A DNA stretch of 64,000 bases, taken from the NCBI GenBank assembly GCA_934130325.1, contig CAKOYA010000003.1:701-64700 (forward strand), given 5' to 3'. A model generated the notes under the pieces. That model was not told the origin of the DNA, searched no databases, and saw only the letters and a list, made by a program, of their open reading frames with translations. The position numbers were made by a program, and so were the translations under genes. Below, piece by piece: positions 7,740-62,339 of this stretch. Each line of letters starts with the position of its first letter. Position 1 is the first letter of the stretch. The DNA comes from an uncultured Clostridia bacterium (lineage in GTDB: Bacteria > Bacillota > Clostridia > TANB77 > CAG-465).

Positions 7740-8190
7740 CTATTCTATTAAATTTACTATTAAATTTTTAAATATATCTGCCCTAATATAATCTCTTTGA
7801 AAATTATCAATTTTTTCTAAGCTTTTATCAGAAACTGCAATTTTAATTAAGTTAGCTGATTTTTTATCTAATATATTATAACTTAAGAAATCTTTTAAGT
7901 AAATGTCTATGACACTTTGCGACAATTTACTACCAATCTTGTCAAGAATATTAGCAATATACTCAGATTTACTAAGATCAACTTTCACAATTTTTATATA
8001 TCCTCCACCGTCCTCTTCTACTTTCTACATAAAATCCCATTTCGGGAGCAAATCTAGTTGAGATGACATAATTAATCTGAGAAGGGACACAATTAAACTT
8101 TGAAGCCAAATCACTCCTTTTTAATTCTATTTCATCACACTATTTTATAATATCCTTTATATATTCTTCTATTAAATCAGATAATTTCAA
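7740..8190 (-). pseudogene. ctsR: ctsR (class III heat-shock repressor) disrupted by an in-frame TAG (8140-8142) and a 1-nt insertion (C at 8010)
   Basis: Hand translation gives LKLSDLIEEYIKDIIK*CDEIELKRSDLASKFNCVPSQINYVISTRFAPEMGFYVESRRG. An extra C follows, then GGGYIKIVKVDLSK..., which continues into the 82-aa ORF. The span is 451 nt, which is 3n+1. Confidence 0.8.
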
Positions 8191-8212
8191 ACTCTCATCT
8201 CCATTTCCTAAC

Positions 8213-8229
8213 TTTGACTTTCTTTGACT
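8213..8229 (-). promoter_or_regulatory. CtsR operator (heptad direct repeat)
   Basis: The minus strand reads AGTCAAA-GAA-AGTCAAA, which matches the consensus RGTCAAANANRGTCAAA exactly. It lies immediately after the -10 box. Confidence 0.8.
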
Positions 8230-8258
8230 ATTATACAACCTTTTTTTATTTTTGTCAA
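8230..8258 (-). promoter_or_regulatory. SigA-type promoter of the ctsR-mcsA-mcsB-clpC operon
   Basis: TTGACA (8258-8253), a 17-nt spacer, then TATAAT (8235-8230). Confidence 0.7.
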
Positions 8259-8499
8259 GTACCAAACGTGTAAAGTGTATAATAAATAGTGAATATACCC
8301 GAATAAATTTTATATTTTTGAATTGAAAATGTTGTTCCTGTTTTTCTACATTTTCTAACTATAGATCTTTCTTCATCTGTATATCCTATGAACTTTTGAC
8401 CTTTTGAAGCCATAGAAAAATACACCTCCTTTCAGAAGTGTATTTTATCATATTTTGTGTAAATTTTTTTATTAATGTCTACTCTGTGGACGCAGTTCA
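8255..8499 (-). mobile_element. Truncated left end of an IS3-family element: terminal inverted repeat plus the first ~50 codons of an orfA-like HTH gene
   Basis: The minus strand starts TGAACTGCGTCCACAGAGTAGACA (TG...GACA-type IS3 end) at 8499. A strong RBS (GAAAGGAGGTG) precedes MASKGQKFIGYTDEERSIVRKCRKTG..., which decays into the ctsR promoter. No transposase body follows. Confidence 0.5.
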
Positions 8500-8639: not shown

Positions 8640-9545
8640 TTAATCTGTTGTTTTGGTATATTCAAAAACTATAGTAGCTGGAAATTTTTTCCAATAAGTT
8701 CTATACCATTGAAATGTAAAATTATCAGCATGTGGCAAGATAGTATAACCACCTGTATTACCACTATCCCAAATATTTACTATTGGTATATACTCTGGAG
8801 TGTTAACATAGATAAAAGAATGAGACACATCTACTGTAACATATTCAACATTTGGGATATCTATTGTATAAAACTTTACACCTGATTCACTTTCCTTTTC
8901 CTCAGGTATATCAACAGCTTTTCTATATAACTTTTTTCCATTTATCCAAGTTCCAATTACAGTCTCTTCTTTTGAGTAAATTTCACTTGTACTATTATTT
9001 GAATTATTATTTTCTAAAGCTGATAACCTATCTAAAATGGAACTGTATTGTTTTTTACTTAAAGTGACATTTTCATCTTCACTATCAGCATCAACAGTTA
9101 GACTTACCCCGTCAATGGAAGCTAGTTGTAGAGAGTCATTAATTTCAAACTCATAAGGAAACTCCTTTAATTTAGTATAAATTGATGAACTATTCCCTAT
9201 ATTTATATCAGCACTCAAACTTGATAATTCATTATTTTTTGATTGAATATGTACATATTCAATTTCGCCATTTTCTTCAATATCTTTTTCTAAAGTGTTA
9301 GCCAACTCTTGCAATGTCGGTAATCTTTGTATTTTTACATAACTATCCATTTGAATAGCTGTTAATTTTAAATTCATTTTTTCAATAGCTGTCTTTTTAT
9401 TTTATTCTTCCGTTGCCCTTTTAGCATTAGATATAACATTATTATCTCCTACTAAATTTAAAATAACTACTGTTGCTAATATAACAATAACTATTATTGT
9501 TATAATCAAAACAATAAGAGATATTCCATATTTGTTTCTTACCAA
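8640..9545 (-). pseudogene. Prepilin-like N-terminus protein (paralog P1) with a tail-fibre-like C-terminal domain, interrupted by an in-frame TAA (9402-9404)
   Basis: The TTG start at 9545 gives MVRNKYGISLIVLIITIIVIVILATVVILNLVGDNNVISNAKRATEE*NKKTAIEK. This continues in the same frame into the 245-aa ORF (MNLKLTAIQMDSYV...). It aligns with paralogs P2 and P3 across the stop codon. Confidence 0.7.
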
Positions 9546-21406: not shown

Positions 21407-22888
21407 CTACTTTATGTAGAGTACAATACGAAATCCAAGAGCCGGAGCAGTATTAACGGTTGCAGTGTTACCAAGACGATATGACGCAGTAGTGAAAGGA
21501 CTCTTGTCGTAGTAACTACCCCCACGAGGAACCTTATTTCCTACTCCTGTATATTCTCCACCTTTTTCTGATACTATTTCTGTACTCCATTCCCATACAT
21601 TTCCCGCTACATCATATATATTTTTAGGACTACCTTCACTTACTACTTCTCCAAATTTTCCTGTCTCTAGTAATAAATATCCAGAACTTGATTTTGTATA
21701 TGTTCCTTTGGTATATACATAGTCTTTATTTTGCGTTCTATAATATCCTGATATTGTATATCCTGTTTTATTGAAATAACTTCCCCAAGAACTACAATCA
21801 GTATCTACATCTACTCCCGCACTTCCTATGAATTTTAACATTGTATCCCACTGTTTTCCTGTTATTAGTCCACTTTGTACTTCACTTGTTGATATTACAT
21901 TTTCTGATACTATTTTTGCATTGTTATAATCTATTTTATTCCAAACTATTTTTCCAGCTTTACTTTGTGCTTTCCCTATATCTGTCCTATTATTATCATC
22001 AGCACTAAATGTTTTTGTTTTCATTAGCTCTTCTGTAGTCTGATCATCTGGTAGGGATGCTTCATATCTTGCCACATAATATCCACCATATTTTTCTATT
22101 TGCTCTTCTTCTTTTGTTACACCTGTTGGTAAAATATCATCTCTTGTTTGATCTGCTTTTACTGTCCAAGATGTACTTATTGCTCCTTCCCATTTTGCAT
22201 ATTTTATACTTTCTCCATCTACTGGTATCCATACGTATTCATTATCATTACTATCAGTTATAACTAATCCTTCGTTCCATCCATCTACTATTCCATCACT
22301 ATTTTTATCTTTCCATGTTGCCTTAGTTGTTTCTTTTGCACTAAATCCTACCGGTATTACTGGATTTTGATATGTTGGTTTTTTTCCTGTTACTGTTGAG
22401 TTTTCTATAGCCTTACTTTCAACTTCTACTTGTGGATACTCTGTTTTTACATTGTCAATTGTTACATCACCTTTGGTTATAGATATCACTGTATTTTTAC
22501 TTATTACCACTTTATCTAAACTATCTAATCCTAAATCTGATAAGGTGATCTGTATTTCTTTTGCTTCCACATCACTTGCTAAATACACTTTTTCATTTAT
22601 ACTTGCTATTTCTGTATTTTCCTTTGTAAAATTTAGAGTAGATATTTCCTTTGTTATTACTCCTGAATACATTCCTCCTGCCTCATCTGAGTTTTCGGTC
22701 CATCTTTTACTAATCCACATCGTAAATGTTTCTTGTGCTACTTTTAAGTCATTTGCATTTACTGCTTCTTTTGCATTACTTATTGGATTATTTTTTATTA
22801 GTGTTACTATTAGGGCCGTAGCTAATATTATTATAACTATTATTGTTATTACTAATACAATAAGGCTTATGCCTTTTTTATTTTTCAT
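21407..22888 (-). CDS. Prepilin-like N-terminus protein (paralog P2) with a C-terminal FGE-sulfatase/SUMF1-type domain
   Basis: The start was refined to MKNKKGISLIVLVITIIVIIILATALIV...ISNAK (ATG 22888 after AGGAGGAG). The C-terminal motifs GGYYVARYEAS, NIYDVAGNVWEWSTE, PRGGSYY and LGFRIVLY are typical of the FGE/SUMF1 fold. Confidence 0.75.
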   Translation of the reverse strand: MKNKKGISLIVLVITIIVIIILATALIVTLIKNNPISNAKEAVNANDLKVAQETFTMWISKRWTENSDEAGGMYSGVITKEISTLNFTKENTEIASINEKVYLASDVEAKEIQITLSDLGLDSLDKVVISKNTVISITKGDVTIDNVKTEYPQVEVESKAIENSTVTGKKPTYQNPVIPVGFSAKETTKATWKDKNSDGIVDGWNEGLVITDSNDNEYVWIPVDGESIKYAKWEGAISTSWTVKADQTRDDILPTGVTKEEEQIEKYGGYYVARYEASLPDDQTTEELMKTKTFSADDNNRTDIGKAQSKAGKIVWNKIDYNNAKIVSENVISTSEVQSGLITGKQWDTMLKFIGSAGVDVDTDCSSWGSYFNKTGYTISGYYRTQNKDYVYTKGTYTKSSSGYLLLETGKFGEVVSEGSPKNIYDVAGNVWEWSTEIVSEKGGEYTGVGNKVPRGGSYYDKSPFTTASYRLGNTATVNTAPALGFRIVLYIK

Positions 22889-32500: not shown

Positions 32501-33721
32501 ATGAATAGCAATTGCTGTAATTCAAATTTTAATACTTGTTGTAATCCAATTGTTCCTCAAAACCTATGTATTCAACAAGGTCCACAAGGAATTCAAGGAA
32601 TTCCCGGGCCACAAGGACCTACTGGCCCTCAAGGCGTTCAAGGTATTCAGGGAATTCCTGGTGCTACTGGTCCCACTGGTGCTACTGGAATAACTGGACC
32701 TGCTGGTCCTCAAGGTGCCCAAGGCGTTCCTGGACCTCAAGGAGCTACTGGTATTGCGGAATCTCCAGATACAATAAAAATTGGTACTATTACTACTTTA
32801 AATCCTGGAAGTTTAGCATCAATAACAGATGTAGGGCAAGGGAAAGAACACATATTAAACTTTTCAATTCCAGCAGGATACGACGGAATTGATGGATTGG
32901 AAGGTCCTGTTGGAGCCACTGGACCTCAAGGAATCCAAGGAATTCAAGGAATTCCCGGGCCACAAGGACCTACAGGTCCTCAAGGTCCCACTGGAGCAAA
33001 TGGAAATAGTGTACGAATTTTAGGTTCCTATTCTACTATAGATGAATTAATGGCAGAACATCCTACAGGAAATATAGGAGATAGTTATTTAATTGGAAAA
33101 GATTTATATGTTTGGTCTGAAAACGAAGATAAATGGAAAAATGTAGGAAATATTTCTGGTCCTCAAGGTGATCAAGGTATTCAAGGTATCACTGGACCTA
33201 CTGGGCCTACCGGACCTACTGGCCCATCAAAAATATCTAGTGCTTACTTAGTATCTTTTAACAATTATCCTAAAGAAGGATATGAAATACGAGCAAATGA
33301 AAGATTACCAATTACTAGAAAGGAACTAGATACTGATAGTATATGTGATTTAGATACAGCTGAAAATATTGTTCAATTTGGAAGAGAAGGCTACTATAAA
33401 ATTACGTTTACAGTAAATGCATATGTACCTTATTTTAATGGTCAATTTGACCCTAATACCGATTTTGTATCTATTGGATTTAGATTAATAGGTACAGATA
33501 ATATTTATATAGGCGATAGTCAATGGATATATAATGAATCTTCTTTAAAGTTAGTTGGGCAAGGAATCATTACAGTACCAAATATTTCATATGCATATGA
33601 ACTAGTTAATTTATCAAATAGAGCAATCTACTTAAATACACCAGATTTAAAGTATATTAATTCTAATTCATATTTTGTTAATTCACCTATAACTATAGTA
33701 GTAGAGTATTTAGGAAAATAA
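32501..33721 (+). CDS. Collagen-like triple-helix repeat protein (BclA-like), with a Cys-rich N-terminus and a globular C-terminal domain
   Basis: Three GXY blocks ([19 protein letters not shown]...). The interspersed modules IKIGTITTLNPGS...LNFSIPAG and GDSYLIGKDLYVWSENEDKWKNVG recur in collagen-like and tail-fibre proteins. The N-terminus is MNSNCCNSNFNTCCNP. Confidence 0.85.
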   Translation: MNSNCCNSNFNTCCNPIVPQNLCIQQGPQGIQGIPGPQGPTGPQGVQGIQGIPGATGPTGATGITGPAGPQGAQGVPGPQGATGIAESPDTIKIGTITTLNPGSLASITDVGQGKEHILNFSIPAGYDGIDGLEGPVGATGPQGIQGIQGIPGPQGPTGPQGPTGANGNSVRILGSYSTIDELMAEHPTGNIGDSYLIGKDLYVWSENEDKWKNVGNISGPQGDQGIQGITGPTGPTGPTGPSKISSAYLVSFNNYPKEGYEIRANERLPITRKELDTDSICDLDTAENIVQFGREGYYKITFTVNAYVPYFNGQFDPNTDFVSIGFRLIGTDNIYIGDSQWIYNESSLKLVGQGIITVPNISYAYELVNLSNRAIYLNTPDLKYINSNSYFVNSPITIVVEYLGK

Positions 33722-33877
33722 ATTTTAAAAGTTTGATAGAATATTATATTTTATCAAACTTATTTTATATGTAAGTTGTTAATTATATTAGATTATGCTA
33801 TCACATATTATATTTGAAAATCATACATTAATATTAAGTAATATATTATTATATTACTTTTGAAAGGAGAATTTGTA

Positions 33878-34570
33878 ATGAATAATTATTGTCAATCAGG
33901 ATGTAATTATGATTCTTGTAGACCACCTTGTCCACCACCAATGCCACCTTCAATGGTTTGCGTTACAGGACCAACTGGACCTACTGGGCCTACTGGGCCT
34001 CAGGGTGTTCAGGGAATTCAAGGTGTTCCCGGGCCTCAAGGCCCTACTGGACCTCAAGGTGTTCAAGGTATCCAAGGTGTTCCTGGAGCTACCGGACCTA
34101 CTGGTGCTACTGGCGTTCAAGGTATCCAAGGTGTTGCAGGTGCTCAAGGTATCCAAGGTATCACTGGACCTACTGGCCCTACTGGTGCCACTGGTGCTAC
34201 TGGAGTAACTGGACCTGCTGGACCTCAAGGTGCCCAAGGTGTTGCAGGTGCCCAAGGAATTCAAGGTATTACTGGACCCACTGGCCCTACTGGTGCTCAA
34301 GGTATCCAAGGTGTTGCAGGCGCTCAAGGTATCCAAGGTATCACTGGACCTACTGGCCCTACCGGACCTACTGGGCCTACTGGGCCTACTGGACCTGCTG
34401 GAGCTGCTGGTACAGACGGAATAGATGGTGAAGATGGAATAACTCCAACTTTAACAATTGGCACAGTTACAACTGGAGCACCTGGTACACAAGCTGCTGC
34501 AACAATAACAGGTGCTTCACCAGATTATGTACTAAATCTTACAATACCTCAAGGCCCTACTGGACCTTAA
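33878..34570 (+). CDS. Collagen-like triple-helix repeat protein, with a Cys/Pro-rich N-terminus and no C-terminal globular domain
   Basis: ATG 33878 follows GAAAGGAG. The protein has ~50 GXY triplets and ends ...[40 protein letters not shown]. Confidence 0.85.
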
Positions 34571-57301: not shown

Positions 57302-59329
57302 CTATTCAACCTTTATCAACAGATTTGCAAAATCCCCCGTCTTATTATCTTTAGCAGTAAGGATAGTTTCACCTCGACTTAATGTTATCACCTTATTTTC
57401 CTCAAGCTTGGCCACAGTCTTATCGGAAAGTGTTAAGGTTATATCTTTACCATATGAATTTCCTAAAAGTGAATATACATTAAAATCCATCCCAAGTTTT
57501 AATGTAATATCGTCGGAATAAAACACTATTCTTGGAATAGGTGTATTGGTTATCCCATCCACTACCTTTACCTTTACTGATTTTTCAACTCTTCCTATCC
57601 TAACAGATATTATAGTATCACCACAAGTAACACCTGTTATATAGCCATCTTTATCAATGACTGCGATATTTTCATTATACGAAGAATACACTGCAGTTTC
57701 CTTTGAATTTGAAGATGGTAACACATCATAAAAATCCTTTATATCTACCTTCATTTTTTGAGTAACTTCAATTGTACTCTTTTTAAAAGAGATATCTTTT
57801 ATACTTTCTTCCTCCTCATCTTTCTTTGTCGCTGTTACTTTGTACTTTACGGTAACTCCATCGCATTTTATTTTTACCCAAGTTTTTCCAGAACCTTTTA
57901 TACACACATTTCCATATTTATCAACCGTTGCTATATTATCGTTTTCTGAATAATATGTGACTTTTCTATCACTAACATTTTTCACAAGTTCTGAAATATC
58001 AAAAGTTTCACCGATATAAAACTCACCTGAATCTTCACTTAATCTTATATCCTTATAGTATTTATCCTCCTTCCAAATATCTTTTTTTACGACCAACTTT
58101 AGTTCTTTCGTCACGCCATTAGATAAAAGAAGTATTTTAGTCGAACCTTTTTTCTTAGCTGTAATTAATCCTGTGGAAAAATTGACCGAGGCTACGTCTG
58201 TATCCTCAGATACATAATACACATTACAATCTGAAGGTGATGTTTTTACATTCTTTTTTAGACTGTAAGTGTCATCTACACTTAAATTAATAACATCTTC
58301 AGATACTGTTATTTTTCTTACCTCCTGACAATACTTTTTATCTGTATATACAAATATAGGTACATACACTTTATCGTAATAAGAACCTATATAATAAAAT
58401 TCAAGGAGCCCTGCTCCGTTTATATTTCCTTTTACTTTTATTACTGCACTTCCTCCATTTATTTCCTGCTTTTGTATAGAAATATTTCCTTTTGTATTAT
58501 CTACCCTTAAATTTTTATTAGGATCATATTTTACCTTTATTGTTACCTCTTTTCCATTTTTTACTGTATAAAAACTATCTTCAGGTGTTATTCTTTTAAC
58601 GTTTCTACTTCCTTTCCCATCTTCATTATATTTGGTCGTTATACAATATACTTGATTCAAGGCCATTGAAACCTCTTCCTCAATGTTAGTTTCAGAAGCT
58701 AAATTTAAGAATATAGTTATTACTTCCTCTTTCGTAATATTTGATTCTGGGTCAAATTCATATATACTTTTCCCGTCAAATAGATTTCTTTCATAACAAT
58801 ATTTTATATATTCAGCCGCCCAAGAATTTTCAATATCCTTAAAAGTGCATTCTCTTTCCTTTTCGACATAAAAGAATTTTTGGTGATAAGTAGCGATAAT
58901 TTTTGCTACTTCTGCTCTTGTTATGCATTCATTAAACTTAAGTTCAACTTCTCCCTCTTCATTCAATCTTCCGTCTAAAATACCTAATTTTCTTAACTTT
59001 TTAACGCTTTCTAAGTCATTATCTGAAACTGTAGCTATATCTTTAAATATAGTCAAATCTTCATTGTCAGCCGATGTCTCATTTCCTGTGTTTTCGATTA
59101 CCTGCAAAATAAGCGAGAATAAATAATACCGTTTTTCCTCCTGTCCTAAATCTTCATATGATTTTAACTTAATCTTTTTTGTTGCCTCTTTAAACCACTG
59201 ACTCATCTCAAATTGTTTCTGATTTTTATACGGAACAAAACATCCACCGTTAAAAGCAAATACATTCAATGTAAACGCAATTCCAACGACTAAAATAACC
59301 AACATTGAAACTATTGATTTCCTTTTCAT
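57302..59329 (-). CDS. Secreted surface protein with SLH-like segments and several Big_2 (bacterial Ig-like) repeats
   Basis: Signal peptide MKRKSIVSMLVILVVGIAFTLNVFA. ITRAEVAKIIATY is SLH-like. There are four repeats of the type VASV...GLITAKKKGSTKI. Confidence 0.7.
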   Translation of the reverse strand: MKRKSIVSMLVILVVGIAFTLNVFAFNGGCFVPYKNQKQFEMSQWFKEATKKIKLKSYEDLGQEEKRYYLFSLILQVIENTGNETSADNEDLTIFKDIATVSDNDLESVKKLRKLGILDGRLNEEGEVELKFNECITRAEVAKIIATYHQKFFYVEKERECTFKDIENSWAAEYIKYCYERNLFDGKSIYEFDPESNITKEEVITIFLNLASETNIEEEVSMALNQVYCITTKYNEDGKGSRNVKRITPEDSFYTVKNGKEVTIKVKYDPNKNLRVDNTKGNISIQKQEINGGSAVIKVKGNINGAGLLEFYYIGSYYDKVYVPIFVYTDKKYCQEVRKITVSEDVINLSVDDTYSLKKNVKTSPSDCNVYYVSEDTDVASVNFSTGLITAKKKGSTKILLLSNGVTKELKLVVKKDIWKEDKYYKDIRLSEDSGEFYIGETFDISELVKNVSDRKVTYYSENDNIATVDKYGNVCIKGSGKTWVKIKCDGVTVKYKVTATKKDEEEESIKDISFKKSTIEVTQKMKVDIKDFYDVLPSSNSKETAVYSSYNENIAVIDKDGYITGVTCGDTIISVRIGRVEKSVKVKVVDGITNTPIPRIVFYSDDITLKLGMDFNVYSLLGNSYGKDITLTLSDKTVAKLEENKVITLSRGETILTAKDNKTGDFANLLIKVE

Positions 59330-59485: not shown

Positions 59486-61078
59486 TCAATCTCCAAAGTA
59501 AAAGATCTCTGGATCAGATTCCCAAATCTGTGTTCCATCCACTAATACTCTGATCACAAGACAAGTTGTTCCTCCTTTTTCCTCCATACCTTGGACTTTA
59601 TAGGTTGCCCAAGTTGAATCACTTGCAACTTTTTCCAGTTCTGCTACATAATCAGAATCTGCGTTCAGTACAACCTTACAGTCATCATTTATGCCTTTGA
59701 TTGTAAATGTAACAGTTCCTGTATCATTGTTGGCTGCCCACTCCACTTCTGGATCAAGATTTGTGTGAATATTCATATTTGTAACACGAATTTCAACCTT
59801 TACTTGTTGTCCTTCAGACTTTGCGGTGATCACCGCATTTTGTTTGTCTTTAGTGGCCTTCTTACCAGTTATTACTGTACCACTTAATTTTATAAATTCC
59901 TCATCATCAGTCTTGATATCCAGATCTCCAGGTATGTTCAATAAATAATCAATTATATCAATCGAATCCCCAACCTGAATGCTTATTACACTCTGAGTCG
60001 ATTTCATTTTTTTAGTTGGCTCAGTTGTTGGTTTTGTTGTCGGTTCAGTTGTTGGCTCAGTTGTCGGTTTTGTTGTTGGATTTACATCATCGTCACTGCC
60101 TGATTTTATTACATTAATCCAGATGTAATCTGACATATCATTGCATGTAGCTGATATTTTGCATTTTCCTTTTGCTTTTGGTGTTATAACACCATTTTTG
60201 TCAACTTTTGCAACGTCTGTATCACTTGATTTCCAAGTTGCGTCCGAATTAATAAATCCTGAAATATCAGTGTCAACCTTTACTTTATACCTTCTGCCTA
60301 CATACAAGTTTTCATCAAACTCTCTTAACGAAAACTCACTACCTTCATCATCTTCTCTTTCAAGCCAAACCCAATATGAATCATTGATACCGTCTATAAA
60401 TTCGTCAAGATCTAATACTTCACCTTCAAAATAACATATTCTGAAGAAAACTATCAACATGTCCTGGTACTCAAAGGTATCGTCAACACCAAATTCATTT
60501 CTCGAATAGCCTTCCATAACACCCCAAGATGCGATATTATCTATCGTATCTTGTGCCCAATGACCTCTTGTATCCCTGAAACTTGAAGTGTAATTGTCTT
60601 CCAATTCCACACCCATTTTATTGATAGCTCTCTCAAAGAAAGCTGCCATTTCGGCACGTGTTGCCGAATCACCCAAGTAAGCATACAAGCCGCCGTCTTC
60701 TTCCTTGTTTCCTTTTAATACCCCAATTTTTGTAGCTTTAGCAATTAATTCAATTTGCTCAGCATCGTAATATCTTAAAATATCACGATAGTCTTCAAAT
60801 TTCCTTATTATGTCCTCATCGACATTTTTTATACTACCGTATAACTGCTCATACAGGTGGACAACTGTAACTGCAGCGTGATATCTTGTAACATCATCAG
60901 TTGCATCCACGTCGTCTTCACCGATTTCCATTGTAAAGGAGTTTTTTACAGCCTTCTTTACATAGGCGTCCCCCCACTCGTTTCTTGCAGCAAATACTGC
61001 ATTTGACATAAATGATACCAAAATAAGTATAACCGCTGTAATTCTAGTAATTCTTTTATTTGTATTATATTCTTTCAT
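59486..61078 (-). CDS. Secreted surface protein with SLH domains, a Big_2 repeat and a Pro/Thr-rich linker
   Basis: The start was refined to MKEYNTNKRITRITAVILILVSFMSNAVFA. FRDTRGHWAQDTIDNIASWGVMEGY is an SLH motif. Other elements are DTDVAKVDKNGVITPKAKGKCKI and PTTKPTTEPTTEPTTKPTTEPT. Confidence 0.7.
   Translation of the reverse strand: MKEYNTNKRITRITAVILILVSFMSNAVFAARNEWGDAYVKKAVKNSFTMEIGEDDVDATDDVTRYHAAVTVVHLYEQLYGSIKNVDEDIIRKFEDYRDILRYYDAEQIELIAKATKIGVLKGNKEEDGGLYAYLGDSATRAEMAAFFERAINKMGVELEDNYTSSFRDTRGHWAQDTIDNIASWGVMEGYSRNEFGVDDTFEYQDMLIVFFRICYFEGEVLDLDEFIDGINDSYWVWLEREDDEGSEFSLREFDENLYVGRRYKVKVDTDISGFINSDATWKSSDTDVAKVDKNGVITPKAKGKCKISATCNDMSDYIWINVIKSGSDDDVNPTTKPTTEPTTEPTTKPTTEPTKKMKSTQSVISIQVGDSIDIIDYLLNIPGDLDIKTDDEEFIKLSGTVITGKKATKDKQNAVITAKSEGQQVKVEIRVTNMNIHTNLDPEVEWAANNDTGTVTFTIKGINDDCKVVLNADSDYVAELEKVASDSTWATYKVQGMEEKGGTTCLVIRVLVDGTQIWESDPEIFYFGD
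60012..60080. repeat. Tandem ~12-15-nt coding repeat (PTT[K/E] linker)
   Basis: GTTGGCTCAGTTGTTGGTTTTGTTGTCGGTTCAGTTGTTGGCTCAGTTGTCGGTTTTGTTGTTGG. Confidence 0.7.
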
Positions 61079-61335
61079 TATTCTCTCTCCTCTAATTTTA
61101 GTCGTTGTGGATAAGTTACTATATATTAAGTCCTTATGGACGAAAACGAATTTATTGTATATAAAACTTGGGTTTCCAAGTATAATAAAGTAATTAATAA
61201 TCAAAATTTTTCAATTGCAATTGTGTGACCCTAAAATTTCATGTCACTTATATATTTCATCTGATATTATTATAACATAATTTACATAATGTGTCAATAC
61301 ATTTTTAAAAATAATTATGTAATCTTTTAATATAA

Positions 61336-61366
61336 AAAATAATAGAATAGGATTTTTTCCTATTCT
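61336..61366 (-). terminator. Terminator overlapping the tdk stop codon
   Basis: TAGAATAGGA-aaaaa-TCCTATTCTA, then TTATTTTTT, on the minus strand. Confidence 0.65.
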
Positions 61367-61938
61367 ATATTATAGCCTATATATTTTTTATAACACTTTC
61401 TACATACAGATTTATATGAATCATTTCCACCTATTAATATTTGTGAACCATTTGTTATAGCCTTACCATCAACAAACCTCATATTTATTGTAGCCTTTGC
61501 ACCACATTCGCATATTGTTTTTATTTCCTCTATTTTATCTGCTATTTCCATTAAATGTTTTGAACCTTCAAAAAGTTCCATCCTAAAATCTGAACGTAGT
61601 CCATAACAAATTACTGGAATATCTAAATAATCAACAATATCACCCAATTCATAAACTTGTTTTTTAGTTAAAAAACTACATTCATCAACTAAAATACAGT
61701 CTACTTTTTGATTTAAATCTTTAACATATTTATATATATTAAAATCCCTACTTATTATTATTGCATCTCTTTGTAATCCAACTCTTGTAGTTATTTTTCC
61801 TACGCCATATCTATCATCAAGCGCTGAAGTAAATATTAATACTTTTTGACCTCTTTCTTCATAATTATATGCTACTTTTAGTAAATCAATTGTTTTTCCT
61901 GATCCCATAGCACCATATCTAAAATATAATTTCGACAT
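61360..61938 (-). CDS. tdk: Thymidine kinase
   Basis: GAMGSGKT, VDECSF, and the C-terminal Zn cysteines CECG...CRKC. Confidence 0.92.
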   Translation of the reverse strand: MSKLYFRYGAMGSGKTIDLLKVAYNYEERGQKVLIFTSALDDRYGVGKITTRVGLQRDAIIISRDFNIYKYVKDLNQKVDCILVDECSFLTKKQVYELGDIVDYLDIPVICYGLRSDFRMELFEGSKHLMEIADKIEEIKTICECGAKATINMRFVDGKAITNGSQILIGGNDSYKSVCRKCYKKYIGYNIE

Positions 61939-61955: not shown

Positions 61956-62339
61956 TTAATTTTCAGAATCTATACCTATTTCTTTAGCCCATTTCTTTTC
62001 ATCATCACTAAAACCACTTTTTAAAACCAACTCACCATTTTTTATTTCAAATTTCCCTTGATACTTAGGATTATCTCTTATTATTTCTAAATTATTTAAA
62101 TCCTCTGTTTTTAAATTATTTCTATCGTATTCACCAAAATTGTTAAAACTTTGTGATGCAACATACGAATCAATTTCTGATTGTATAGCTTTTAAATCAT
62201 TTTGAAATGTTGATTTTTTTGCATTTCCAATTTGGTTATTATTAAGTGATAAAACTACAGCCGATGCTAAAATAATCATTATAATTATAGTTATCAAAAG
62301 TACTATTAAAGATACTCCATAGCTTCTTTTTCTAGTCAT
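61956..62339 (-). CDS. Prepilin-like N-terminus protein (paralog P3), short form (127 aa)
   Basis: MTRKRSYGVSLIVLLITIIIMIILASAVVLSLNNNQIGNAKKSTFQNDLKAIQSEIDSY. The RBS is GAGGTGGAAATTA-ATG. Confidence 0.65.
   Translation of the reverse strand: MTRKRSYGVSLIVLLITIIIMIILASAVVLSLNNNQIGNAKKSTFQNDLKAIQSEIDSYVASQSFNNFGEYDRNNLKTEDLNNLEIIRDNPKYQGKFEIKNGELVLKSGFSDDEKKWAKEIGIDSEN

Follow-up and report, generated by a model that had tools for sequence, protein, structure and literature searches.

Modular type IV pilins, in which a pilin module carries an additional C-terminal domain, have been shown experimentally in Streptococcus sanguinis: PilB bears a module of the vWA type and PilC one of the ConA-like lectin type (PMC8179133, PMC9934059). 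Three genes whose products start with a common pilin-like N-terminus, P1 (8640-9545), P2 (21407-22888) and P3 (61956-62339), are described here in 64,000 nucleotides of chromosomal DNA ("the window"; 27% GC; GenBank assembly GCA_934130325.1, contig CAKOYA010000003.1, positions 701 to 64,700) from an uncultured Clostridia bacterium. A preliminary description of the window had proposed a modular surface system with a pilin-like anchor and knew of no characterised system of this kind; the S. sanguinis pilins are one (PMC8179133). Its observations were partly confirmed and its interpretation was partly supported: P1, P2 and P3 are likely to be modular type IV pilins of a non-canonical type, without the glutamate at position +5 (Glu5), from a very large family of uncultured low-GC gut Clostridia.

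The likeness to S. sanguinis lies in the setting, a type IV pilus of Gram-positive bacteria that has PilB, PilT and PilC, in modular pilins similar at the N-terminus to the same organism's major pilins, and in lectin-type heads, including PF13385, on both sides. However, S. sanguinis PilB and PilC have Glu5, canonical IPR012902 signals and genes inside the pil locus, whereas the present family lacks Glu5, is mostly missed by curated signatures, and has dispersed genes, with at least 16 copies in one MAG (metagenome-assembled genome). The published survey recovered about 1,200 modular pilins via IPR012902 (PMC8179133, PMC9934059), and a survey based on this signature would miss the present family of more than 20,000 clusters.

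In S. sanguinis, Gly at -1 was needed for processing and Glu5 for assembly, and PilA, a minor pilin without Glu5, was still processed by PilD (PMC6497953). GspK of Escherichia coli also has a class III-like signal with Gly-1 and no Glu at +5. The window proteins resemble GspK and S. sanguinis PilA in this respect, but these two are single low-abundance tip subunits accompanied by a major pilin with Glu5, whereas here the presumed major pilins lack Glu5 too. Archaeal pilins and the sugar-binding proteins of the Sulfolobus bindosome have class III signals without a conserved Glu5 (PMC3047682); there, as presumably here, diverse surface proteins are displayed and are encoded away from the assembly genes, but the present family is bacterial and is associated with a Pil-type machine (PilMN, PilO, PilT, A24_N_bact). 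No paper was found in the literature that described Glu5 loss across a whole pilin set or contained the motif strings of the family. The replacement of Glu5 family-wide, presumed major pilins included, and the size of a family missed by curated signatures are unusual. Glu5 is treated as a defining, essential residue, and a clade with presumed major pilins lacking it and a PilD that looks protease-less would test models of assembly.

Two further systems are related. Diversity-generating retroelements (DGRs) of Bacteroides diversify the tip adhesins of type V pili (PMC11601372), and a survey of DGR targets reported a "GspG-type pilin" domain only among the rare domains holding a variable region (VR) (PMC11661182). 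In TANB77, "pilin-like proteins" belong to a Tad-like cluster (CpaB, TadZ, CpaE, TadA, TadBC; PMC11680825), which shares with the present family the origin in uncultured low-GC gut Clostridia, the presence of pilus genes and pilin-like proteins with a single transmembrane segment; by description, it is set apart as Tad-type from the present Pil-type locus (PilMN, PilO, PilB, PilT, PilC). Genus CAG-273 is placed in TANB77, and on that basis the window's organism would belong there as well. TANB77 has been linked to immunotherapy response via a "pilin-like" protein, so that defined and testable surface ligands would be useful.

A pilin-like N-terminus shared by three genes

A strict six-frame motif scan of the window returned exactly three open reading frames (ORFs) with the shared N-terminus, starting at 9545, 22888 and 62339, all on the reverse strand, in agreement with the preliminary description. 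Each starts with a basic leader (Table 1) and Gly, followed by I/V-S-L-I-V-L-x-I-T-I-I, and the +5 residue was Val in all three, as had also been reported; none therefore has the Glu by which type IV pilins are recognised at this position. The other N-terminal features of these pilins were present in P1, P2 and P3: a short, positively charged leader with Gly at -1 and, right after the Gly, a hydrophobic segment of about 20 residues heading a long alpha-1 helix (from sequence, and from AlphaFold2 (AF2) models for P2 and P3). Synonymous sites differed among the three coding sequences (e.g. Ser encoded by TCT vs. AGC), so the N-termini are conserved at the protein level, with selection on the peptide; a DNA repeat or gene conversion as the source of their identity was ruled out by these differences.

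The same 17-20-residue pattern was found again in 348 retrieved homologs, with the consensus [KR]-G-I-[ST]-L-I-[VAS]-L-[VI]-[IV]-T-I-[IV]-V-x-[IL]-I-L-A. Position -1 was occupied by Gly in 325 homologs and by Ala in 23 (only G, A or S was admitted by the capture pattern), position -2 was K or R in 76%, and the leaders had 4-21 residues and a net charge of +2 to +5 (median +3). At +5, V, A, S or T was found and Glu never (209 and 138 homologs). The Gly or Ala at -1 and the basic leaders are consistent with the Gly-1 requirement for PilD processing (PMC6497953).

A profile of 40 diverse family N-termini was searched against PDB sequences and 1.84 billion protein representatives. In the PDB, solved type IV pilins were matched, with Gly-1 placed on Gly-1 and the alignment running through alpha-1C: Geopilin (9egp, E 5.3e-7), S. 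sanguinis PilE1 (8pfb, E 2.3e-4), MshA and PilA4; a separate module profile gave the identical register and matched PulG too. The class III signal is thus not mimicked, as had been suggested, but related by divergent homology. Curated models recorded little of this. Neither PF07963 (E<=1) nor TIGR02532 matched P1, P2 or P3; the only match to such a model was to GspG (TIGR01710, E 0.0019, P3); the archaeal Pilin_N model reached the family at E 3.4 only; and curated N-terminal models were marginal in relatives, with 6 of 130 matched and a 143-residue pilin from a pilus locus (L178, see below) passing N_methyl just above threshold (22.4 bits vs. a cutoff of 21.2). Judged from these alignments, the N-terminus of P1, P2 and P3 is a divergent homolog of type IV pilins' class III signal peptide and alpha-1 helix.

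Among the protein representatives, the profile search, which the preliminary description had recommended for finding members and pil genes, returned 36,963 clusters (50% identity) at E<=1e-3 and 20,558 at E<=1e-10; a pilus locus was found by tblastn in relatives, and none in the window's contig. These numbers bear on the explanation that P1, P2 and P3 are three ordinary hydrophobic signal anchors resembling each other by chance in an AT-rich genome, where, at 27% GC, segments rich in I, L, V, K and N are common. The motif scan yielded these three ORFs only, solved pilins were matched in register, and the clusters at the stricter threshold alone exceeded 20,000; chance resemblance was refuted by these results and retains practically no probability.

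Modular architecture of P2 and P3

P2, with 858 homologs, most of which have the same N-terminus, is organised as a modular pilin, i.e. a pilin module (residues 1-165) with an extra non-pilus C-terminal domain, here a C-type-lectin (CLec) head (residues 170-493). Its AF2 model (mean predicted local distance difference test score, pLDDT, 90.7) contained helices at residues 9-32 and 35-65, together an N-terminal helix of about 56 residues, strands at 73-79, 83-89, 108-114, 126-130, 133-139 and 142-145, and then a confidently predicted head. P2 alpha-1 was aligned by profile to alpha-1 of Geopilin, PilE1 and PulG. As for the globular pilin fold, six strands followed alpha-1 in the P2 model, and a hairpin and short helices in that of P3 (pLDDT 85; helices 11-33 and 36-66).

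The P2 head had been assigned to the fold of the formylglycine-generating enzyme (FGE/SUMF1), which held at the level of the fold but not for the enzyme. Pfam FGE-sulfatase covered residues 420-489 only (E 4.5e-7, model positions 174-254/255), DGR variable proteins headed the Foldseek matches, namely TaqVP (5vf4, E 9e-5) and Mtd (1yu*), and the single Cys of P2 is residue 365. FGE catalysis needs a pair of Cys residues. An FGE enzyme was ruled out by the partial Pfam match, the single Cys and the non-enzymatic structural matches, and the head is predicted from the model to be a C-type-lectin-fold binding domain.

P3, previously regarded as carrying a stub of about 70 residues, aligned over its whole length with residues 1 to about 125 of P2-type proteins (local BLAST), and is therefore the N-terminal module of these proteins standing alone. 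The earlier statement that the C-termini of the three proteins are unrelated stands for P1, which belongs to another subfamily, but not for P2 and P3, which share this module. A homolog search with P3 retrieved one ortholog and one weak match only. P3 is placed 17 nt upstream of tdk and, with a promoter-like site before it and a terminator-like site at the end of tdk (Table 1), the two genes are probably co-transcribed.

Family distribution, heads and diversity-generating retroelements

All of the 159 genome loci obtained with two N-terminal queries came from uncultured Clostridia or Clostridium-type assemblies, almost all labelled as metagenome-assembled genomes (MAGs), and one MAG held at least 16 distinct members; the size of such a family-rich genome we take to be about 1.5-2 Mb. 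In 130 relatives the heads were FGE/CLec, BspA-type leucine-rich repeats (LRR_5), F5/8-C, ConA-like lectin (Laminin_G_3, PF13385), fn3, Collar, C1q and MucBP, i.e. lectin- or adhesin-like. The proposal of a pilin-like N-terminal module with interchangeable surface heads was thus supported and STRENGTHENED, by the pilin homology, by the heads of these relatives and by the pilus locus of related MAGs. The family is largely invisible to InterPro and Pfam, and surface repertoires of uncultured gut Clostridia are therefore under-annotated. Lectin- and adhesin-like heads, some of them DGR-diversified, point to a possible binding of host glycans or partner cells in these reduced-genome lineages.

Complete DGRs adjoined family members in L111 (4849-8774), L142 (942-4695) and L207 (2520-6182), with Avd, a DGR-type reverse transcriptase (RT), the template repeat (TR) and, at the 3' end of the pilin-like gene itself, the VR. 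The VR/TR mismatches were located at TR adenines in 24/25, 13/13 and 22/25 cases, respectively. These three members are true DGR targets, which implies exposed ligand-binding surfaces. No remote VRs for the three TRs were detected in the sampled loci. In L246 (9977-12831), Avd and a short RT were present and a TR was undetected.

The situation of P2 itself differed from that of DGR variable proteins in that no cognate DGR was present: neither TR nor RT was found in the window or its contig, and P2 as an active DGR target was rejected on these grounds. Its equivalent of the variable region was identical in P0001, a 99%-identical protein. The sister orthologs of P2, P0002-P0005, showed 88-92% identity over about 440 residues and 60-71% in the last 50, where the changes fell only at separate sites between the RGGS…GFRFVLYIK scaffolds, which are conserved; this pattern is suggestive of DGR activity, judging by the alignments. 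No RT was found beside two other P2-like genes.

The family therefore resembles Mtd and TaqVP in the fold of the P2 head and in relatives with a full set of VR, TR, Avd and RT and adenine-specific changes, and the Bacteroides tip adhesins in placing a hypervariable adhesin on a putative pilus subunit. It differs in the carrier: a type IV pilin-like module in Clostridia, vs. a type V pilin in Bacteroides or a phage fibre in the case of Mtd.

The likeness to Mtd and other DGR variable proteins, the Collar, C1q or gp53-like domains of some relatives and the truncated N-terminus copies on three IMG/VR contigs would be expected if the proteins were prophage- or phage-derived receptor-binding proteins, with heads as tail-fibre modules and mobile genes. 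However, P1, P2 and P3 are embedded among core genes (the clpC operon, scpB-addB-spoIIE and tdk) at positions kept in distant relatives, only 5 weak matches were obtained in the 2.9 million viral contigs of IMG/VR, P1 had no phage tblastn or PHROG match, and the DGRs of the relatives sit beside housekeeping-type genes. A phage origin is thus very improbable.

On the viral-classified contigs (L169 1778-1852, L170 16-90 and L171 164-229), the family N-terminus (MNTKKKNARGITLIALVITIIVLLILAG…) was followed by stop codons after about 23 residues, in L170 and L171 near the contig end. These truncated copies may mark the integration into, or the decay of, a family gene.

A type IV pilus locus in related genomes

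Searches by tblastn with E. coli GspE/GspF and then with the L178 proteins revealed a conserved pilus locus in 16 loci from 16 MAGs, with the order pilMN, pilO, a gene for a small membrane protein, 1-3 tandem pilins, pilD-like, a minor pilin that mostly has Asp or Glu at +5 (GFTGID/E), a Glu-less minor pilin, pilB, pilT and pilC. The tandem pilins (113-168 residues) had the family N-terminus and lacked Glu5. In L178, Pfam matches were obtained for T2SSE (4.9e-103 and 2.9e-43), T2SSF (4.6e-29) and A24_N_bact (6.4e-30), confirming PilB, PilT and PilC. The association with an assembly ATPase, a platform protein and alignment proteins was thus found at the clade level only; at that level, the lack of conserved partners that the preliminary description had named as evidence against a pilin-like system did not hold.

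Two other approaches returned nothing. Neighbour enrichment around 109 members gave no conserved partner, a result that holds for the dispersed members; the pilus locus was missed because few of these loci carried pilus genes. Motif scans for Walker A, A24 GxGD and canonical GFTLIE pilins in 3.7 Mb of loci with about 220 members gave no match, and for the ATPases these were false negatives, since PilB reads APTGEGKTT and PilT GKTNSGKTT. Canonical Glu5 major pilins were absent from the scanned loci and from the pilus loci.

The locus pilins and the dispersed members were closely related within genomes. In MAG CALXEW, a near-identical N-terminus of about 35 residues was common to the three locus pilins and to dispersed members 362-458 residues long, one of which has a CLec-type end (…FRPLLYL), and UMGS1649 showed the same sharing between locus and dispersed members with the GISLIVL variant. 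Over about 55 residues, the identity of the window proteins with the pilins of the L158 and L102 loci was 45-56% (P3 vs. L158: 45% over 56 residues).

An acidic +5 residue was seen in the first minor pilin after the pilD-like gene in L178 (11381-11791), L182, L205, L212, L224 and L231 (GFTGIDI, GFTGIEI, GYTGVDI). In these loci it was confined to that minor pilin and missing in the other locus pilins; the equivalents in L102 and L158 (GLTMMSV, GITMASL) had no acidic +5.

Pilus subunits or surface anchors

In the proposed mechanism, P1-, P2- and P3-type proteins would be inserted into the membrane via alpha-1N, a hydrophobic helix of about 25 residues, handled by the dedicated type IV pilus machine (PilMN, PilO, PilD-like, PilB, PilT, PilC) that relatives encode beside short pilins with the same N-terminus, and incorporated into the filament, or displayed at its tip, via the common alpha-1 helix. 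Short members (the locus pilins and possibly P3) would be filament subunits, and long members modular pilins whose C-terminal heads bind ligands, the P2 head being a C-type-lectin one, of a kind hypermutated by DGRs in relatives. We infer that the window proteins would be substrates of such a machine, cleaved after Gly, with the long members on filaments. The identification as pilins is supported by the N-terminal homology, the modular architecture, the linkage to a full Pil-type machine in relatives and the DGR-targeted members.

Several results weigh against it. Filament assembly has depended on Glu5 in each of the bacterial systems tested (PMC6497953). The preliminary description had noted that prepilin peptidase, secretion ATPase and platform genes are missing from the window, and no pilB, pilC or pilD was found in the window or in its 72-kb contig either (searches including tblastn with E. 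coli GspE/GspF and L178 proteins); nor was a pilus locus seen in the nearest ClpC relatives (74-81% identity), which were sampled in part. Dispersed members, over 200 of them, are set at conserved positions among housekeeping genes and have no conserved neighbour. Of the recommended structure predictions, those of P2 and P3 gave the long N-terminal helix, but Foldseek against the PDB retrieved no pilin at a significant E-value with either model, and no significant match of any kind with that of P3.

The PilD-like protein belongs with these results. Four representatives (Table 1) matched A24_N_bact at E ~1e-30 and Peptidase_A24 (PF01478) not even at E<=10; leader cleavage after Gly is therefore a prediction. 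The L178 type of this protein had about 8 hydrophobic/transmembrane segments, conserved Asp in GID(L/K)E and L-x-L-D, and, close to the C-terminus, a P-[IF]-G-like motif, and may, from these motifs, be a divergent active peptidase. In L102 and L158, which belong like the window proteins to the GISLIVL group, four hydrophobic segments were followed by a soluble C-terminal domain, and the second protease half was gone.

The main rival holds that the long dispersed members (P2 and intact P1) retain an ancestral pilin N-terminus just as a membrane anchor, cleaved or uncleaved, and a stalk, and are exposed as surface monomers independently of the pilus machine, and that only the short locus pilins polymerise. 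The missing Glu5, the scattering of more than 200 partnerless members among housekeeping genes whose synteny is conserved, the absence of a pilus locus from the window's contig and the PilD-like protein without a recognisable protease domain would all fit such monomers. However, the near-identical alpha-1N of about 35 residues in dispersed members and locus pilins of one MAG is needless for a mere anchor and explained by co-assembly, and Gly/Ala at -1, Ser/Thr at +2, Leu at +3 and Leu at +6 were retained across thousands of clusters. The locus pilins also lack Glu5, and its absence therefore cannot tell anchors from subunits. Weakened by the sharing of alpha-1N within genomes, this rival appears rather unlikely, and Glu5-less modular pilins are preferred.

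A broader proposal is more tentative, and on balance doubtful: that the clade runs a type IV pilus assembling without the interaction between Glu5 and the N-terminal amine, in the GISLIVL lineage perhaps without canonical leader cleavage, and uses it generally to display the dozens of exchangeable adhesin heads of each genome, some of them DGR-hypermutated. Non-canonical processing in that lineage is suggested by the locus PilD homolog, which there keeps the N-terminal half only. If the proposal is true, a Glu5-independent display pilus would be among type IV pili what the DGR-diversified tips of Bacteroides are among type V pili.

P1, a probable pseudogene

P1 is not the single ORF that had been reported for 8640-9545: translation begins at a TTG and is interrupted by an in-frame TAA, and a 245-residue ORF can be called inside the remainder from an ATG at 9377. 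The TAA and 200 nt of flanking sequence were identical in five independent assemblies from different samples, and the TAA is therefore a real, fixed nonsense mutation and no assembly error; intact homologs (P0141) have Ser in its place. P1 is probably a pseudogene, a copy inactivated by this mutation. Its 110 homologs, nearly all with an intact pilin-like N-terminus, form a subfamily separate from P2 and P3, in which the "NLKIT…YPYEFEIN…LQLASIDG" region is conserved and the C-termini vary.

The P1 head had been called tail-fibre-like. No match was found in Pfam, in PDB sequences, in PHROGs (E<=0.01) or by tblastn in 50,697 phage records, and a tail fibre was rejected accordingly. The C-terminal "EEQVIGTWIDGKPLYRK…" domain was also present in P0123 (173 residues), behind a different single-transmembrane N-terminus that is not pilin-like, so this head has been exchanged between anchor types.

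Table 1. Positions of the P1, P2 and P3 features, of neighbouring genes in the window, and of the PilD-like homologs in related loci (positions of the latter refer to the respective locus).
Feature	Position	Strand	Description
P2, modular pilin-like protein	21407..22888	-	intact, 493 residues; strong Shine-Dalgarno sequence (AGGAGG) before the ATG at 22888; stop 21407-21409
P2 leader MKNKKG	22871..22888	-	ends in Gly(-1), predicted prepilin-type cleavage site; Gly-on-Gly with solved pilins
P2 alpha-1 helix, residues 7-65	22694..22870	-	hydrophobic alpha-1N ISLIVLVITIIVIIILATALIVTL, Val +5, break at NNP, amphipathic alpha-1C
P2 beta part of N-terminal module, residues 66-165	22394..22693	-	AF2 strands; homologous to P3 residues 67-127
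P2 head, residues ~170-493	21410..22381	-	predicted C-type-lectin/FGE-like ligand-binding domain
P2 equivalent of relatives' DGR variable region (…RGGSYYDKSPFTTASYRLGNTATVNTAPALGFRIVLYIK)	21410..21544	-	scaffold as in L111 and L142 VRs; undiversified here
P3, stand-alone pilin-like module	61956..62339	-	intact, 127 residues; leader MTRKRSYG, Val +5
P3 promoter-like site	62388-62360
tdk	61360-61938
Terminator-like site of P3-tdk	61368-61342
P1 promoter-like site	9597-9569
P1 N-terminal fragment	9405..9545	-	47 codons, TTG start with AAGGAG 10 nt upstream; (M)VRNKYG leader and alpha-1N, Val +5
P1 in-frame TAA	9402..9404	-	splits P1 after ...NAKRATEE
P1 remainder	8640..9401	-	in frame with the fragment; "NLKLT..Q…YPYEFEIN..LQLASIDG" region and C-terminal domain of ~110 residues, fold unassigned by Pfam/PDB sequence
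ctsR	7978-8425	-	appears inactivated
Collagen-like gene	32501-33721	+
Collagen-like gene	33860-34570	+
SLH + Big_2 surface protein gene	57302-59329	-
SLH + Big_2 surface protein gene	59486-61204	-
PilD-like homologs	L178 10518-11336; L205 10532-11347; L158 10518-11336; L102 10489-11352

Gene context and neighbouring genes

The genes of the window were core genes and genes for sporulation: the clpC-mcsB-mcsA operon, spoIIE, addB, scpB, RNase R, spoVB, obg, recN and tdk. The identity of its ClpC was 81% with a "Clostridia bacterium" MAG and 62% with Clostridium sp. CAG:273.

Upstream of mcsA-mcsB-clpC, ctsR appears to be inactivated by two lesions: …KDIIK is followed by an in-frame TAG, and the Gly-rich motif contains a frameshift (…ESRRGRWRIYKNCES and a stop). 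In another assembly of the species, an 82-residue CtsR_C fragment was the sole call. The slot just upstream of ctsR-mcsA-mcsB-clpC was occupied by family members in several lineages: three tandem CLec-headed copies in L018 (2794-6072), P1 in the window, and a 415-residue member in L007 (6596), which suggests a conserved insertion or expansion site.

Two genes encoded long collagen-like GxT/GPQ triplet repeats behind Cys-rich N-termini and resembled BclA-type exosporium proteins of spore formers. Directly downstream of the P3-tdk unit lay the genes for two large surface proteins that contain SLH and Big_2 domains, so that cell-surface genes are plentiful on this side of the window.

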